NCBI GenBank assembly: GCA_965214615.1
Contig: OZ243952.1
Location: forward strand, 2,238,822-2,302,821
Source: Arenicellales bacterium
Lineage (GTDB): Bacteria; Pseudomonadota; Gammaproteobacteria; Arenicellales; JAJDZL01
Direction of reading: 5' to 3'
DNA length: 64,000 nucleotides
Part shown: one piece after another, positions 1,283 through 19,595 of the stretch
Layout: each line of letters starts with the position of its first letter
Numbering within the stretch: the first letter of the stretch is position 1
Notes under the pieces: model-generated
The model's database searches: none
Seen by the model: only the letters and a program-made list of their open reading frames with translations
What the model was told of the DNA's origin: nothing
Made by a program: the position numbers and the translations under genes

Positions 1283-2677
1283 CTACAGATACCATTGATA
1301 CTCGCGGTCTGATATCTTTTGATGAAATTCGGCCATTTCTCCGCGTTTCAATTCATAGTAGAGCTTGAAATACTCATCCGTAAGGTATTGTCTTGCAAAG
1401 CTTGATTCGGCAAAACGATCCAGCGCATCCGGCCAGTTCAACGGCCACGTTCTATCGACATTGCCGCTTTCGTTGACTAGGCTGCTCGGTGCTCCGGGGT
1501 CGATTCGATTCTCAATCCCATGGTGAACTCCTGCCAATATCGCAGCCAAAACCAGATAGGGATTGGCATCGGCGCCCGAGACGCGATGCTCCAGTCGACG
1601 CGCCTTGTCATCTCCCCCCGGTATTCGTACTGCCAGTGAGCGATTATTGACACCCCACGACGGATTAACAGGAACGAAGATGTCCGGCACAAACCGCCGG
1701 TAGGCATTGATGTTGGCCGCAAATATTGCGAGCATGTCGGGAATCGTCTGCACCAGTCCGCCGATGGCGTAGCGCAGCATGTCGCTGCCGAGGCTGGTTT
1801 GTCCTGCGAAGACATTGTTGCCGGAACTGTCAGACAGGCTCATATGCACATGCATACCGCTGCCGGCGTGGTCCTTGAATGGCTTGGACATGAAGGTGGC
1901 GCGCATGTTGTGCTTTTTCGCCGATTCTTCAATGACTCTTTTCAGCAAAACGCAATGGTCAGCTGCAGCAAGCGGATCATCCACATGCCTAAGGTTGATT
2001 TCGTACTGCGATGGCGCGAATTCGCTGGTCATTACCGAAGCGGGAATTTGCTGGACTTCGCAGGCGGCGCGGACGCTCTCAAGAAATTCAAACCGTTCAT
2101 CAAGATCTTCCAGGGAATACACCTGAATTTCATCTTCAACAGCCAAAGACGATCCTTGGTTCGGAATCCTAGGCGCACCGTTTGCGGCCAGTTTGGAATC
2201 CGCAAGATAGAACTCAAGCTCGAATGCGATGTTTGCCGTCAAGCCCAGCGAATTGAATGTGTCGACTACGCGGCCGGCAACGTTTCTCGGGTCGGTTCCG
2301 CAAAGGTTTCCAGCATCGTCGTAGAGTCGTGTGAGCACCTGCGCTGTAGGAATATCATACCAGGGCACGATGTGGGTGCGCTGCGGTATCGGAAACAATG
2401 TCCCATCCGGATCTCCGTCGTCAAACCCGCGCCCGCATGGATCCGAACTGCTGCCATCGACATTGAGCAAATAGGTGCTCTCGGGAATCTGCACTCCCGA
2501 CGTATAGACTTTTTCGGCGTCTGCGATCGGTATTCTCTTTCCACGGATTCGGGCGCAACTGTCTGCTGTGATGACATCCAGATAGCGGACCTGCGGATGC
2601 ATCTTCATCAAACTGTGAAACTCCATTTCCGGAGCTGATTCAGGACTTGCGTTCATCGGATTGCTGTGCGCCTGCAC
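1283..2677 (-). CDS. puuA: Glutamine synthetase family protein, gamma-glutamylputrescine synthetase-like
   Basis: Motifs RGKRIP, DGDPDG, FELEFYL, SEFAPSQYEINL, GSGMHVHMS, WGVNNRS, RLEHRVSGADANPYL; adjacent to the puuB-like gene. Confidence 0.8.
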   Translation of the reverse strand: MQAHSNPMNASPESAPEMEFHSLMKMHPQVRYLDVITADSCARIRGKRIPIADAEKVYTSGVQIPESTYLLNVDGSSSDPCGRGFDDGDPDGTLFPIPQRTHIVPWYDIPTAQVLTRLYDDAGNLCGTDPRNVAGRVVDTFNSLGLTANIAFELEFYLADSKLAANGAPRIPNQGSSLAVEDEIQVYSLEDLDERFEFLESVRAACEVQQIPASVMTSEFAPSQYEINLRHVDDPLAAADHCVLLKRVIEESAKKHNMRATFMSKPFKDHAGSGMHVHMSLSDSSGNNVFAGQTSLGSDMLRYAIGGLVQTIPDMLAIFAANINAYRRFVPDIFVPVNPSWGVNNRSLAVRIPGGDDKARRLEHRVSGADANPYLVLAAILAGVHHGIENRIDPGAPSSLVNESGNVDRTWPLNWPDALDRFAESSFARQYLTDEYFKLYYELKRGEMAEFHQKISDREYQWYL

Positions 2678-2756
2678 GCACTCTTGATTTTTTTCAGATA
2701 TGAATTGATGCTCGGCGAAGAGGATTATCTTACGACCATGGTAGGGGAATTATCGC

Positions 2757-3119
2757 ATGCCCGGACAATTTTGGCATACAACTGCCTTCAAGGCAGTGCA
2801 TATTGACGTCATTGCGGACGCCGTTCTCGAAACTGCCTTCAAACGCATTTCACGGTTGGACAAATATGAATGGAATCGATGGGCATTCTTTCCAAATGGC
2901 CTCGAATCAGTAGATGCGTTTGAGGAGTTTTCCGTCCTAGGCAAAGCCCTGCGGGCAAAACGGGCGAGACTTGGAATCAGATTCTGCAAGCTACGTCGGC
3001 AAATGTATCGACGTTTGATACGGCCTGAAGCAGACCGGGAAGCGCCTTATCACACCAAGGTCATGCAGTGCCGCCGATCCCTCAAGGCCTTCGAGAACAA
3101 GCATGTTGTTGCCGACTGA
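2757..3119 (+). CDS. Hypothetical protein (120 aa)
   Basis: Only sizeable ORF between puuA and the Cache gene; purine-rich GGGGA upstream; no recognisable motif. Confidence 0.3.
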   Translation: MPGQFWHTTAFKAVHIDVIADAVLETAFKRISRLDKYEWNRWAFFPNGLESVDAFEEFSVLGKALRAKRARLGIRFCKLRRQMYRRLIRPEADREAPYHTKVMQCRRSLKAFENKHVVAD

Positions 3120-3147
3120 CAAACTCCCTGTTGACAACTCTGCCTGT

Positions 3148-3627
3148 TCAATACCTGTAGACGCCGCATCCGAATATGAAGCCTTCGTGCCGAACCACCC
3201 AGGAAAGCTTGTCTATGGACTCGCCAGGGACAGTCGTCTGCGATCCGTAATTCACCCAGGCACCTGATGGACTTACTCCGTCGAGTATCGCATTGCCGAT
3301 GTTCAGCCCGTTCGGGTCTATGAGCAGGCGTACGTCCGTCCCGACTATTGAAGGAACCCCCGCGTGAGCCACTATTGTGGCATCATTCGCGCTCAAGACA
3401 AAAATATACAGATCCTTGTGTTTGAACTTCGGTGCAGGATTTTCGTTAAAGCGTTCGAAAGCAGATTCAGCCCCTTCGGAATCAAACAACTCAATCGCCT
3501 GAGATACCATCAACTGGGCCTCATGGAGCGAACCGCGTTCATCCTCGTCCTCTGCAGCGACAGCGACTGCGGCAAACAATAACATCGCGACGGTGGACGT
3601 CAATCGGAAAATAGACAATTCTTGCAT
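3148..3627 (-). CDS. Stand-alone single Cache domain protein, probably exported
   Basis: Signal-peptide-like AMLLFAAVAVAA, then AFERFN...FKHKDLYIFVL...IVAHA...DPNG...WVNY...KLSWV...FIFGCGVY, typical of single-Cache sensors. Start moved from 3822 to ATG 3627 because the upstream extension lies in the Rpn 3' repeat. Confidence 0.75.
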   Translation of the reverse strand: MQELSIFRLTSTVAMLLFAAVAVAAEDEDERGSLHEAQLMVSQAIELFDSEGAESAFERFNENPAPKFKHKDLYIFVLSANDATIVAHAGVPSIVGTDVRLLIDPNGLNIGNAILDGVSPSGAWVNYGSQTTVPGESIDKLSWVVRHEGFIFGCGVYRY

Positions 3628-3730
3628 TGAACACATACTCTGCGATTTTCGATGGCACTTCAAATCTGTAATGTCAAACTTTGAATCAAAACGTATTTTT
3701 CTGATCGCTGTCAGCTGATCGGCGATTCCA

Positions 3731-4762
3731 CTTGCGGACTTGTGCTGCAGATTTCTAAAATCCGCCAACATGCCTGACCTTGATGCGAAGACTTGTACTC
3801 CGGTCAGCGAAGGAACAGTCACGAACGAATACCGCAGCAGTTATTCGGAATCTCGCTCTTCAACGATTAATCTGAGCTGTTCTTCATCCAGGTCAAAATA
3901 TTTTCGGACAAATCGTTCGTCGACCCCGTCTTGCAGCATACGTTTCGCTAAATCGTGCCTTGCTTCCTGACGGCCTTCCTGCCAACCTTCCTGCCAACCT
4001 TCCTGCCTGAGTCGCTCTATGCTACTCAATGCCATTTCTGCCATCTTGCTTTCTCCTGTTTCATGCAGTTCAAGTTGCGTCCATCACTCATTTTTAGGGG
4101 CTCATGGTGGCTCTCCAGATTTCCAAACTCTGCCGCCCGAATTTCGTCATATTCGACTTATCTGAGCAACTTGCCTTTCGAATCAGCATGAACCGCAAAG
4201 CGTTCTTTCAGCCGGCCGCTTGAGTCAACTCCATGTCGAGTCGATAATGCGTGGCGGGAAACTCAATTCGGACAAAATTTGATGCGCAAAGTTGCCAACG
4301 CTCTCGAGCGCTAAATCGATACGCTGCAATTTGACACACTCGCACGCGAGCCAATAAACTTACGATCTTGTCAGATTCGTCTTGTAGGCTTGCGCTGCAG
4401 ATTTCTAAAATCCGCCAACATGCCTGACCTTGATGCGAAGACTTGCACCCCGGTCAACGAAGGAACAGTCAAGAACGAATACCGCAGCAGTTATTCGGAA
4501 TCTCGCTCTTCAACGATTAATCTGAGCTGTTCTTCATCCAGGTCAAAATATTTTCGGACAAATCGTTCGTCGACCCCGTCTTGCAGCATACGTTTCGCTA
4601 AATCGTGCCTTGCTTCCTGACGGCCTTCCTGCCAACCTTCCTGCCAACCTTCCTGCCTGAGTCGCTCTATGCTACTCAATGCCATTTCTGCCATCTTGCT
4701 TTCTCCTGTTTCATGCAGTTCAAGTTGCGTCCACCACTCCATTGTAAGACGCTCATGGTGGT
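3731..4762. repeat. Direct repeat, 650-bp period (about 3731-4112 vs 4381-4762); core 3823-4083 identical to 4473-4733
   Basis: Direct line-by-line comparison: 261 bp identical, scattered mismatches in 3731-3822, and rapidly decaying similarity beyond 4084. Confidence 0.97.
3841..4044 (-). CDS. Stand-alone copy of the Rpn C-terminal small protein (RpnS-like, 67 aa)
   Basis: Identical to the last 67 aa of the Rpn at 4491-5456; AGGAG Shine-Dalgarno 8 nt upstream of ATG 4044; QEGW repeats. Confidence 0.75.
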   Translation of the reverse strand: MAEMALSSIERLRQEGWQEGWQEGRQEARHDLAKRMLQDGVDERFVRKYFDLDEEQLRLIVEERDSE

Positions 4763-5456
4763 ATTTCAAATAGTCGACAACAGGCACCCATATCTGGCCG
4801 ATCTCCGCTTCGCTAAACAGGCTGCTCTTGCGAATCAGATTCAAACCTATCTCACGGTCGATCTCACCGTACACCACCCCCATCGCATACAGTCCCGCCG
4901 CAACCGGCGCATCCGACTCCAGCAACCTTTGCTGCACCTTGGAATCCTGCAAATTCACGACAATCGCATCAAACTGGTTGACATTGGCTCCGTATGTGCG
5001 CCAGAACACTTCGCCCGGGTCTTCAAGCCAGTCTCGAAACCTCATCGTGCTCCCGCCTCGCCATGTGGCGCCGTTGTTGACGATCAGTGTGACCACAGGC
5101 TCGCGGCTGAGCGCATACAGCCCGCTCTGATATCGAAGCACCTGTCGAAAAATGTCGCCGTAGCGTATCGTGCTCTTGTGCTCTACGAGAAAGCGAAATC
5201 TTACCGCCGCTGAAGATGCAGACGACTTCAACGGCACCCGGATCACCGCGTCGGCGTCCTGCAATGACTTGTTCGGCGCCTTGCTTCGAGTCACCTGAAG
5301 CTCGGCGCGATCCGCGTCGATTACGGACCATTGCTCTTCGCTCAAGGTCAAGCGCAACGCCTCGATTGCGCCGCGCGTGGACGAAATCACCTGGCTGAAC
5401 ATCCAGTCGTGGTCGTGTCTCTCGGAATCTTTATTCTTATCTTTCGGGTCTGCCAT
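4491..5456 (-). CDS. Rpn family recombination-promoting nuclease / putative transposase (YhgA-like, PD-(D/E)XK)
   Basis: N-terminal HD..F, DADAVIRV...FLVEHKS nuclease motif, RQVLRYQ, PVVTLIVNNG...W, C-terminal QEGWQEGWQEGRQE repeats. AAGGAG RBS before ATG 5456. Confidence 0.85.
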   Translation of the reverse strand: MADPKDKNKDSERHDHDWMFSQVISSTRGAIEALRLTLSEEQWSVIDADRAELQVTRSKAPNKSLQDADAVIRVPLKSSASSAAVRFRFLVEHKSTIRYGDIFRQVLRYQSGLYALSREPVVTLIVNNGATWRGGSTMRFRDWLEDPGEVFWRTYGANVNQFDAIVVNLQDSKVQQRLLESDAPVAAGLYAMGVVYGEIDREIGLNLIRKSSLFSEAEIGQIWVPVVDYLKYHHERLTMEWWTQLELHETGESKMAEMALSSIERLRQEGWQEGWQEGRQEARHDLAKRMLQDGVDERFVRKYFDLDEEQLRLIVEERDSE

Positions 5457-6037
5457 GCTGCGCTCCTTTTCTATTGCCAATACATTCCTCACCCGCATCC
5501 AGCAGCTCGCCGACCGCGATTGAATGTCGCAATATTAACACGAGACCGAGGTGACCTCAAATGCTGCATAACAACTATTTTCGCGGTGCCAACTGCGCTG
5601 CCGAGTGCGGCTTGCAGCAGCGAGCCTTTACATGAACGACGTGCACATCCGCGATTCGAATAGCGAATATCAACACGGTTCCGGCTGACTGGTGCCGATT
5701 CGGCGGCCGTGTCAAGAACCTATGCGTATGCAACGCATGTTCGAACTGATCAACATGCGCCCATGGCGTTTGTCTTATGCGCTGAAAGCCAATGCTAAGA
5801 TTAGGGGCACCGCTTCGCTTACAACACCAATCTTGACACTCCAAGACTTGCCATCATTTAAATTGGTGCGCAACCGTGTTTAAGTATAATTCTGCAAACC
5901 GCAGCAAATGACAGCGAAAATGACATTCGTGCTCTGTGACCGCCTGCCATGTTCGCGTTCAGTAGCGTCGGCAAGCAATGCACAGCAAGCATAGCCACTA
6001 AAACCACCACATTTTGCATTCAATCGGAGACATCGAC

Positions 6038-18130: not shown

Positions 18131-18623
18131 CTTGCAATGAATTTGTCCGCAATCGGTATTTAAACTTGATTCTGCAATTGTCGAGTTTCGGCACAATTAT
18201 ACAAACGGTGCGATGTGTGGCTTCTGACGAATTTGGCAAGCAGCAAATCTCATTACGGCATCCGCATTTTCTGTTTTGGCAAACGATCGTCAACTCGGTT
18301 TTGTTGAGAGTGCGGCGGTTTCGGATTCCGCAGTCGCGGGTTTTGCGGAGCAGGATAAGCACTGCCGTAATGGCCTGGTTTTCCTAAAATCTGACCGTTG
18401 CGTCCGCGACGCTCTACGAACGGCATGCATCACTGACGCGGCCAGTGTTATATCCCGCGTCTTCATCCGGGAGACGAGATTCAGAAAAATCATTCCGTCA
18501 GAGAATTAATTTTCAATTGACGCTGCCGTGCGGGGCGACGATCATCGATCGACACTTGACAGCGCCCGGTGCACACTTAAAGCCGCCGCGGCCATGATTG
18601 CACGGAATTCGATGATCGAGGCT

Positions 18624-19595
18624 ATGATGAAAAACGATCCGACCTATAGCAACTTTTTTTCGTATCGGACATTTTTCGAAGACTTTCTTCGCTATGTCTA
18701 TCGCGACGAGGGAGATCTTGAGGATAAATTTGATCTGTCTACGCTGCGCCAGGCAACCGCCGAGCACGTAACGCCCGAATTCAGGAAACGCTGTTCGGAT
18801 ACTGTTTGGGTGTGCGATCTGACCTCATCGGGCGTGACAGTGTGCTTTTGTGTCGAGTTTCAGACCAATTGCGATTTGCACATGCCGGTGCGCATGGCAG
18901 GCTATAGCGCGATGCTGCTGGGATCTTTGACCAAGGAAGCAAAGGGCGAAGTCTTAAGGCGGGCATGCCCGCCAGTGGCTCTTGTGGTAATCTTTCATGG
19001 ACCGGGACGCTGGAATGTGGCTGCAGATGTTCGCGACACGTTCGCCGAGACCGGCATCAAGGCGATTCAGTCGCGGCTTGTGTCGGCTCCGTATGAGTTG
19101 ATCGACGAGCGCGAGAAGGCGGCCGGAAGCTTGGACACGCGGTTGCTGTATCCGGCGCTGCTGCGGATGATCTACAGCGAAGATATTGTTCAAGTTGTCG
19201 ATGCATGGCGCGCGGTGCGCAGGCGTCTTGTCGGCCAAGGGCATGGCGAATTGCGCAATCAGTTCGTAAAATTGATACAAAATGTGGTGTCCCCGAAATT
19301 CAAGGGGATGACGATAATGGACGAGGAGGACTCGATGAGCACAGTAGAAGAGCGGTTTGCCGAATCGTTTGATAAGGGTTTGCTTAAATTCAAGCGGGAA
19401 AGCATGCAGGAAGGCATAGAGAAAGGCAAGAAGGAAGCAATGCGGTCTGTTCTGCAGAATCAGTTGGAGTATAAGTTCGGCATGGTGCCCGAGGCGGCGC
19501 GCGAGCGCATTGAATCTGCCGACTGCGGTCAGTTGCAACGCTGGGCGGTCCGGGTGATACAGGCTGCGGAGATCGACCACGTTTTTGCCGACTGA
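18624..19595 (+). CDS. Second Rpn family nuclease / putative transposase with a DUF4351-like C-terminus
   Basis: ND..Y..FFS, SDTVW...VEFQT, MPVRM..Y, PPV..VVIFHG...W, QEGIEKGKKE, LEYKFG..P...QLQRW. GAGG RBS before ATG 18624. Confidence 0.85.
   Translation: MMKNDPTYSNFFSYRTFFEDFLRYVYRDEGDLEDKFDLSTLRQATAEHVTPEFRKRCSDTVWVCDLTSSGVTVCFCVEFQTNCDLHMPVRMAGYSAMLLGSLTKEAKGEVLRRACPPVALVVIFHGPGRWNVAADVRDTFAETGIKAIQSRLVSAPYELIDEREKAAGSLDTRLLYPALLRMIYSEDIVQVVDAWRAVRRRLVGQGHGELRNQFVKLIQNVVSPKFKGMTIMDEEDSMSTVEERFAESFDKGLLKFKRESMQEGIEKGKKEAMRSVLQNQLEYKFGMVPEAARERIESADCGQLQRWAVRVIQAAEIDHVFAD

Follow-up and report, generated by a model that had tools for sequence, protein, structure and literature searches.

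In Rpn systems, a toxic full-length nuclease (RpnL) is neutralised by RpnS, a small protein translated from an internal start of the same gene (Zhong et al., 2023, PMC10400941). In the case of RpnC, neutralisation was abolished by the addition of a single repeat (PMC10400941). Downstream second copies of RpnS, named rpnSs, have been described as well: ypaA (rpnESs) follows rpnE, and rpnCSs follows rpnC in some strains. These copies cluster with the RpnS of their own upstream gene, the RpnESs protein has been detected in Escherichia coli, and cases are on record in which rpnSs was lost because the N-terminal domain became joined to the rpnSs region, a recombination for which RpnL was suggested as a possible initiator (PMC10400941). 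Stand-alone DUF4351 genes occur in some species (PMC10400941), and a commentary also points out that some loci hold a second RpnS copy (Koonin, PMC10400984). Here we describe a locus of this kind in an Arenicellales bacterium. All coordinates are those of a window of 64,000 nucleotides (nt) taken from contig OZ243952.1, unless a genome locus is named. In this window, a 321-amino-acid (aa) Rpn-like gene (4491-5456, minus strand) is followed by a free-standing 67-aa open reading frame (ORF; 3841-4044, minus strand), hereafter the orphan, which is identical to the C-terminal end of its neighbour. We consider it likely that the orphan is a second source of cognate antitoxin of the rpnSs type, derived from an old partial tandem duplication and recently homogenised with the neighbouring gene.

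An original prediction, made from the letters of this DNA, presented the architecture as one not known to be described. It is in fact already in print, since the rpnSs arrangement of E. coli has been presented by Zhong et al. (PMC10400941) and by Koonin (PMC10400984); a search of the literature after 2023 on Rpn, RpnS and DUF4351 returned nothing relevant besides that paper, its preprint and the commentary. What the window locus has in common with rpnE-ypaA and rpnC-rpnCSs is an rpn gene with an internal RpnS start followed by a same-strand ORF closest to the gene's own RpnS, four-aa (12-nt) repeats in the first helix, and a partial tandem duplication as the likely origin (PMC10400941). There are also clear differences. 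In E. coli K-12, ypaA starts 12 nt past the rpnE stop and 177 nt of it match 165 nt of rpnE at 84% identity, with an extra repeat in ypaA, whereas the window copy is 100% identical over 261 bp and its ATG lies 446 nt past the stop of the gene (4491 to 4044). A degraded fragment from the end of the N-domain and a trailer of 117 nt also belong to the duplicated unit of the window, and the window protein, whose family scores fall short of the cut-offs, is no more than a distant relative of the Rpn proteins of E. coli. In RefSeq, ypaA (rpnE-ypaA locus, L034:4905-6002) is marked as a pseudogene, though its protein has been reported (PMC10400941).

With the gene-within-gene RpnL/RpnS systems (RpnA, RpnB, RpnP2) the locus, known here from its sequence, shares the D..D...E-x-K motif of the N-domain, a C-terminal domain (CTD) resembling RpnAS (structure 7TH0), a Shine-Dalgarno (SD) motif and ATG at the start of the CTD, and hypervariable four-aa repeats; it differs in lying between housekeeping genes, outside a defence island. 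Like the stand-alone DUF4351 (PF14261) genes (PMC10400941), the orphan is a free-standing RpnS-like ORF, but a Pfam scan of the 67-aa sequence at E up to 1 gave no DUF4351 match.

The repeat, the gene and the free-standing ORF

The two copies are related by an exact match of 261 bp at an offset of 650 (3823-4083 = 4473-4733), which is the longest at that offset and occurs at only two sites in the window. It contains the 67-aa ORF, flanked by 18 nt past the stop codon and 39 nt ahead of the start, and in both copies an AGGAG motif (4053-4057 and 4703-4707) stands 8 nt ahead of the ATG. A repeat search delimited a direct repeat with 650-bp spacing at 3724-4023 and 4374-4673, with a short extension at 4089-4110 and 4740-4761, so that the full extent is 3724-4110 against 4374-4761 (segments D1 and D3). 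Over the 362 ungapped columns of 3724-4085 there are 11 mismatches, ten of them in the trailer at 3724-3822 and one at 4084. The downstream edge of the identical tract is at 3822, the first of the ten mismatches in the remaining 99 nt of the trailer. The trailer itself occupies 117 nt after the stop of the gene (4374-4490, minus strand) and is 91% identical to its partner after the orphan (3724-3840, minus strand), which ends the module at 3724. The upstream edge is at 4084, where the orphan has a TGA stop and the gene a TGG codon (4084-4086, minus strand); the same stop is present in the orphan of a second, paralogous module described below.

Beyond that stop the identity falls sharply, from 100% to about 47% over some 115 nt (about 4086-4200, minus strand), a stretch which is the decayed remnant of Rpn codons ~203-239 and carries a one-base insertion or deletion (indel) and stop codons. 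The duplication is old, with a sharp step in identity. Positions 4111-4180, compared at an offset of +651, retain 47% ungapped identity (z 4.2), a value reached by none of 7600 control offsets, while 4181-4280 and 4281-4373 resemble the Rpn gene at the level of chance in the same offset-control test (z 1.8 and 1.5). The 261-bp identity, the 650-bp period, the C-terminal ORF with its AGGAG and the few trailer mismatches had all been described correctly in the original prediction. The residual homology further upstream that it described is also real but short: likeness exceeds chance up to about 4200 and is at chance over 4201-4373. Of the two short matches it had cited, GCTCATGGTGG falls inside segment D3, whereas CGAATCAG, at 4179/4831, was located where the best offset shifts to 652.

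Each copy of the ORF includes a 12-nt tandem repeat of 3.8 copies (3963-4007, with a twin at 4613-4657), which encodes units of the form QEGW or QEGR. These four-aa repeats start at residue 14 of the 67-aa ORF, within the range of residues 8-20 reported for RpnS (PMC10400941). As for other features of the region, positions 3400-5800 gave no Rfam match at any E value up to 1, and the predicted folding of the two trailers (z -1.6 and 0.0) was no different from that of shuffled sequences. Two Ser/Cys-rich plus-strand ORFs of 76 aa (3740-3970 and 4390-4620) were considered as genes and set aside as unsupported; they are probably an antisense shadow of the repeat.

The 321-aa gene would be the equivalent of RpnL, a toxin of the YhgA-like PD-(D/E)XK type, according to its ORF, weak family matches and invariant residues. 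A database search yielded eight relatives, one of which (P0006, 47% identical) passes the YhgA-like profile PF04754 at 25.8 bits, whereas the window protein does not; the latter would therefore be a divergent relative which remains below threshold on its own, and we tentatively file the gene as a divergent member of the Rpn group. In all nine aligned sequences H16, W18, D67, D69, E92, K94, Q105, R108 and Y109 are invariant, and the segment DADAV...EHKS fits the PD-(D/E)XK pattern in the N-terminal domain. By analogy with that superfamily, we take D67, D69, E92 and K94 to be catalytic. Moreover, a profile of the nine relatives aligns through residues 274-311 with the 49-aa chain of 7TH0, a crystal structure of RpnA's small protein (E 0.0039). 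In an AlphaFold2 model built from the nine-sequence alignment (mean predicted confidence, pLDDT, 73), VIA-align placed the N-domain nearest to PD-(D/E)XK nucleases, namely McrC (Z 6.0), R.BspD6I (5.8), MspJI (5.4) and NucS (5.2), followed by SduA, SgrAI and FokI (Z 4.4-5.0), and the last 44 residues (278-321) resemble helix-turn-helix (HTH) domains at Z ~5, RpnS being a three-helix, HTH-like domain, all of these values being below the guide value of Z 8. The defence-system search PADLOC gave a match at chance level only (E 0.01-0.02). These likenesses at the sequence level, together with the identity of the two ORFs, bear out the view that the gene is Rpn-like and that the orphan is its RpnS-type C-terminal ORF. 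A second YhgA-like gene is present elsewhere in the window (18510-19592, plus strand); it belongs to a different subfamily, scores above the PF04754 cut-off (47.7 bits) and has no adjoining orphan in the profile survey.

Inside the gene, the RpnS-type ORF (4491-4694, minus strand) has its own ATG at 4692-4694 and the AGGAG mentioned above, from which its translation may be presumed. A candidate internal promoter, TTGAAA-17-TACAAT, lies at 4741-4769 (minus strand), about 45 nt upstream of the internal ATG; it agrees with the sigma-70 consensus in 10 of 12 positions and is a pattern match only. No terminator-like site was found by scanning the minus strand between gene and orphan, and read-through transcription of the orphan from the gene is possible.

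The orphan meets its closest counterpart in the adjoining gene: it is 100% identical to its neighbour, 86-93% identical to the copies in the paralogous module and at most 77% identical to other copies in the genome, that is, a same-strand free-standing ORF beside an rpn gene and closest to the RpnS of that very gene, as in rpnSs. It keeps both the SD motif and the ATG. Furthermore, an SD-like motif and an ATG at the start of the C-domain are found in most full-length paralogs and most orphans of the genome, and none of the genome's 12 CTD-only ORFs is interrupted. Between the window orphan and its ortholog in the paralogous module, likeness is 98.7% in the ORF and 86% in the adjoining trailer; the ORF has three substitutions outside the repeat tract, all of them synonymous by codon reading, and the 36 nt by which the repeat tracts differ make up a whole number of units. 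These comparisons and the open frames speak for constraint on the orphan.

Duplication and recombination history

A tandem repeat with a period of 650 implies a unit of 650 bp. It is made up of about 362 nt from the 3' end of the gene (starting near codon 200) and about 288 nt of downstream DNA, namely the trailer of 117 nt and some 173 nt beyond it. It had been proposed that the duplicate once included the toxin half and lost it. That part of the proposal finds no support and is unnecessary; a partial tandem duplication without the nuclease half fits the period, and this half need never have been copied. The Rpn N-domain profile, run with filters off against the three-frame translations of the spacer, gave E 0.3 or worse, and the sole word in those translations in register with the DNA-level trace is LIRKAS/LIRKSS. 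The paralogous module repeats the initial 59 nt of the spacer behind the trailer of its orphan, as the start of a third unit. Because of this recurrence and the absence of N-domain signal, the spacer (4201-4373, minus strand), which has no detectable likeness to the Rpn gene, is understood as native downstream flank inside the unit.

The paralogous module offers a second record of the same history. The whole module of the window (3724-5600, minus strand) has a copy in the same genome (G000:C1:1722171-1724130) at 94% identity, with the same gene-spacer-orphan layout and sequence differences of its own. The gene and orphan copies of both modules, four sequences in all, were aligned and the parsimony-informative sites classed. 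In the decayed and junction stretch, 54 of 54 informative sites pair Rpn with Rpn and orphan with orphan, hence the duplication, the TGA and the decay are older than the copying of the module. The C-terminal ORF has two informative sites, and both separate the window pair from the paralog pair. At the six informative sites of the trailer the grouping is crosswise, with the window gene and the paralog orphan on one side and the window orphan and the paralog gene on the other. No conflicting sites occur inside any of the three segments. To produce three adjoining and mutually incompatible patterns, recombination or conversion must have acted at least twice once the module had been duplicated.

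The identity of the tract leads to the same point. It includes about 105 near-neutral sites (some 48 synonymous sites plus 57 non-coding bases), and at the 10% divergence of the trailer the probability of zero changes over them is, by our own arithmetic, about 1e-5. For this reason, selection alone does not account for the identity, and gene conversion is needed to explain why synonymous and non-coding sites agree as well. The gene conversion or concerted evolution invoked from the start is thereby borne out, both by this probability and by the three-pattern mosaic.

Orphan copies in the genome and its relatives

Iterated profile searches over all six-frame ORFs of the genome recovered 15 full-length genes of the Rpn-like family, 12 CTD-only ORFs and four truncated genes keeping the N-domain end; a more distant subfamily was matched in part at eight loci, four of them also with a C-domain match. 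A same-strand CTD-only ORF lies 279-482 nt from 10 of the 15 full-length genes, downstream of seven (in one case as two copies) and upstream of three, which makes 11 pairs. In every pair the orphan resembles the type of its own neighbour, with 55-100% amino-acid identity. At the DNA level the pairs are 78-90% identical elsewhere and 96% overall in the window, and in the 11 comparisons the homology begins about 75-480 nt before the stop of the neighbour. Expressed as orphan minus neighbour in units of four residues, the repeat tracts differ by -1, +2, -3, -1, +1, +4, +2, 0, +6, -3 and -7.

Examples of such pairs are found at G000:C1:545383-547013, 1416494-1418228, 2625931-2627373 and 3160954-3163036. 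One gene has two orphans in series, with five and one units against eight in the gene. At G000:C1:305587-306420 two adjacent CTD-only ORFs of the window's subfamily (WWKQLELQETEESKM...) occur with no full-length gene near. Another pair of paralogous modules (G000:C1:1057089-1058767 and 2197703-2199438) has upstream orphans with the same displayed protein sequence, and its full-length genes differ by five repeat units (nine and four, by eye).

Orphan C-terminal copies, which were to be looked for in related genomes, are indeed present there. Among species-representative genomes, the nearest relatives are in two Arenicellales metagenome-assembled genomes (MAGs), at 45-47% identity, and a clear downstream orphan accompanies two of their four loci, with a weaker one at a third. 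Rpn homologs followed by a same-strand CTD-only ORF are seen at L027:2956-4447 and L029:2959-4471 (Arenicellales MAG); by eye, the orphan at L027 is one unit above its neighbour, and that at L029 is equal in length with a diverged sequence. A DNA search of 40 related genomes found no orthologous module, the matches being mostly short ones to the 12-nt repeat tract; a few others, short and of low identity, fall in the coding region.

The module is surrounded by a glutamine-synthetase-like gene, a Cache-domain protein gene, a peroxiredoxin gene and a PfkB kinase gene, a housekeeping context without a defence island. In a genome of the same genus (G001) the outer flanks (glutamine-synthetase-like on one side, peroxiredoxin/PfkB on the other) are only 411 bp apart, from which it follows that the segment of about 3.4 kb at 2588-6035, which holds the Cache-domain gene as well as the Rpn module, is accessory.

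Possible roles of the orphan

The account that we favour may be told as a succession of events. An Rpn-type toxin-antitoxin gene would encode an N-terminal PD-(D/E)XK nuclease and a C-terminal domain also translated alone as RpnS. A 650-bp partial tandem duplication, from about codon 200 to about 290 nt beyond the stop, would have produced the free-standing antitoxin ORF, and the non-coding remnant upstream of the copy would then have decayed. Recombination between the repeats would have homogenised the RpnS ORF and its ribosome-binding site again and again, and the trailer less strongly, the last time in the window recently enough to leave 261 identical bp. What the sequences themselves show is the duplication, the identical tract, the mosaic left by recombination, the family likeness and the conserved start signals. 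By analogy with the described systems, the orphan would be translated, and would bind and silence the nuclease of its neighbour as the internal RpnS does; the toxicity of that nuclease and any anti-phage role of the locus are presumed on the same grounds. The orphan should silence its neighbour because its repeat number equals that of the neighbour, and such a match matters because one added repeat abolished neutralisation in RpnC (PMC10400941). As a second cognate source, the antitoxin could be regulated separately.

A number of observations weigh against this account. As regards the family, the 321-aa protein reaches 16.9 bits with PF04754 (cut-off 21) and 32.3 bits with the Rpn family model TIGR01784 (cut-off 52.1; E 8.9e-8), in the latter case over the C-terminal part only, and a Foldseek comparison of the AlphaFold2 model with the PDB returned nothing at E <= 0.001. 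As regards expression, a consensus scan found no promoter-like site for the orphan, and the candidate internal promoter of the parent gene is not kept in the orphan copy. The pooled ratio of non-synonymous to synonymous differences per site (pN/pS) between orphan and neighbour is 0.42; this may be counted in favour of constraint on the orphan, but as a pairwise value it is a mean over two lineages and is no proof on its own. Repeat numbers also seldom agree. Both window copies have four units, but in the paralogous module the gene has three and the orphan seven; 10 of the 11 pairs of the genome are mismatched by whole four-aa units between shared anchors, the window pair being the sole zero; and ypaA exceeds the RpnES part of rpnE by one unit. 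Given the published RpnC experiment (PMC10400941), such mismatches should prevent neutralisation. On account of the paralogous module, the ten pairs and ypaA, a cognate "spare antitoxin" is then not the general role of these orphans, and the equal repeat number of the window pair may be a passing state.

The mismatches feed two other explanations. The pilE/pilS silent cassettes offer a model for the first of them: there, an expressed gene stands beside truncated, promoter-poor partial copies with conserved flanks and a variable tract, and gene conversion produces mosaics. The orphans might likewise be recombination cassettes which store repeat-number variants and move them into the expressed gene by conversion or by inter-repeat deletion, so that the specificity of toxin and internal antitoxin would change in one step. 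The window pair would be the footprint of a transfer, from cassette to gene or from gene to cassette, possibly driven by the Rpn nuclease. In accordance with this, the repeat tracts of the ten unequal pairs are offset by entire units (-7 to +6) and the CTD sequence around them is alike, the three incompatible site patterns lie in adjoining segments, and the homology in all 11 comparisons begins before the stop of the neighbour, at the distances given above; Zhong et al. also record rpnSs loss by fusion and suggest that RpnL may start it (PMC10400941). Unlike pilS copies, however, the orphans are short complete ORFs with their own start signals, retained under some constraint and needless for a silent cassette. 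No transfer from donor to gene was observed, and the contigs of four public sequencing runs show no deletion or fusion joint, though contigs drop rare variants. Slippage in the 12-nt repeat alone could also give mismatched numbers without any donor role, and overall we hold the cassette explanation to be rather unlikely. The orphan could otherwise be a functionless by-product of duplication-prone Rpn loci, kept open by conversion from the expressed gene, as may be argued from the identity that continues past the ORF into non-coding bases in either direction (3823-3840 and 4045-4083), from the missing promoter-like site and from the pseudogene status of ypaA in RefSeq. This we judge more improbable still: every one of the 12 CTD-only ORFs is open while the remnants directly upstream carry stops, the orthologous orphans differ outside the repeat tract by three synonymous and no non-synonymous changes, repeat indels always come in whole 12-nt units, and the E. 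coli counterpart RpnESs has been detected as a protein (PMC10400941).

It could also be supposed that the pair is an artefact of assembly or polishing, with only one copy in reality or with two copies equalised by the consensus. No read or contig in the available data bridges the 650-bp repeat, and over-polishing would yield exact identity. The available contigs come from four public runs of one study and are not independent support, because they probably derive from the same sample as the genome. None spans the entire repeat, at which short-read contigs break as expected. Nevertheless, they cover every distinguishing junction: flank and trailer (3475-3759), orphan and spacer (4054-4333), spacer, second trailer and gene end (4304-4394 and 4394-4550), and C-terminal domain and nuclease part (4704-5590). 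The shared piece is thus joined by separate contigs to the spacer and to the nuclease part, and in run X1 its depth (3902-4083; 135) is close to the sum of its two exits (60 + 81). No joints, insertions or deletions are seen in these contigs, which are uninformative on rare variants, and a loose contig end at 5600 resembles the flank of the paralogous module. The stronger argument for the assembly is internal replication, as the second module, 520 kb away in the same genome, repeats this layout and carries differences of its own; the layout also recurs at nine further Rpn genes of the genome and at two to three of the four loci in the two Arenicellales MAGs. An artefact is, for these reasons, very improbable.

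By itself the locus constitutes a further, distant and non-enterobacterial example of the rpnSs arrangement known from E. coli. The cassette explanation, if true, would amount to a mechanism of programmed variation for a defence system. The locus bears on questions named by Zhong et al. (PMC10400941) and by Koonin (PMC10400984), namely how repeat numbers change and what purpose a second RpnS copy serves. A single genome holds 11 pairs, one matched and ten mismatched by one to seven units, together with a pair of modules that has recorded its own recombination. They form a natural series for asking whether a downstream copy neutralises its neighbour only at equal repeat number, and it is this genome-wide series of matched and mismatched pairs that most deserves the attention of specialists.

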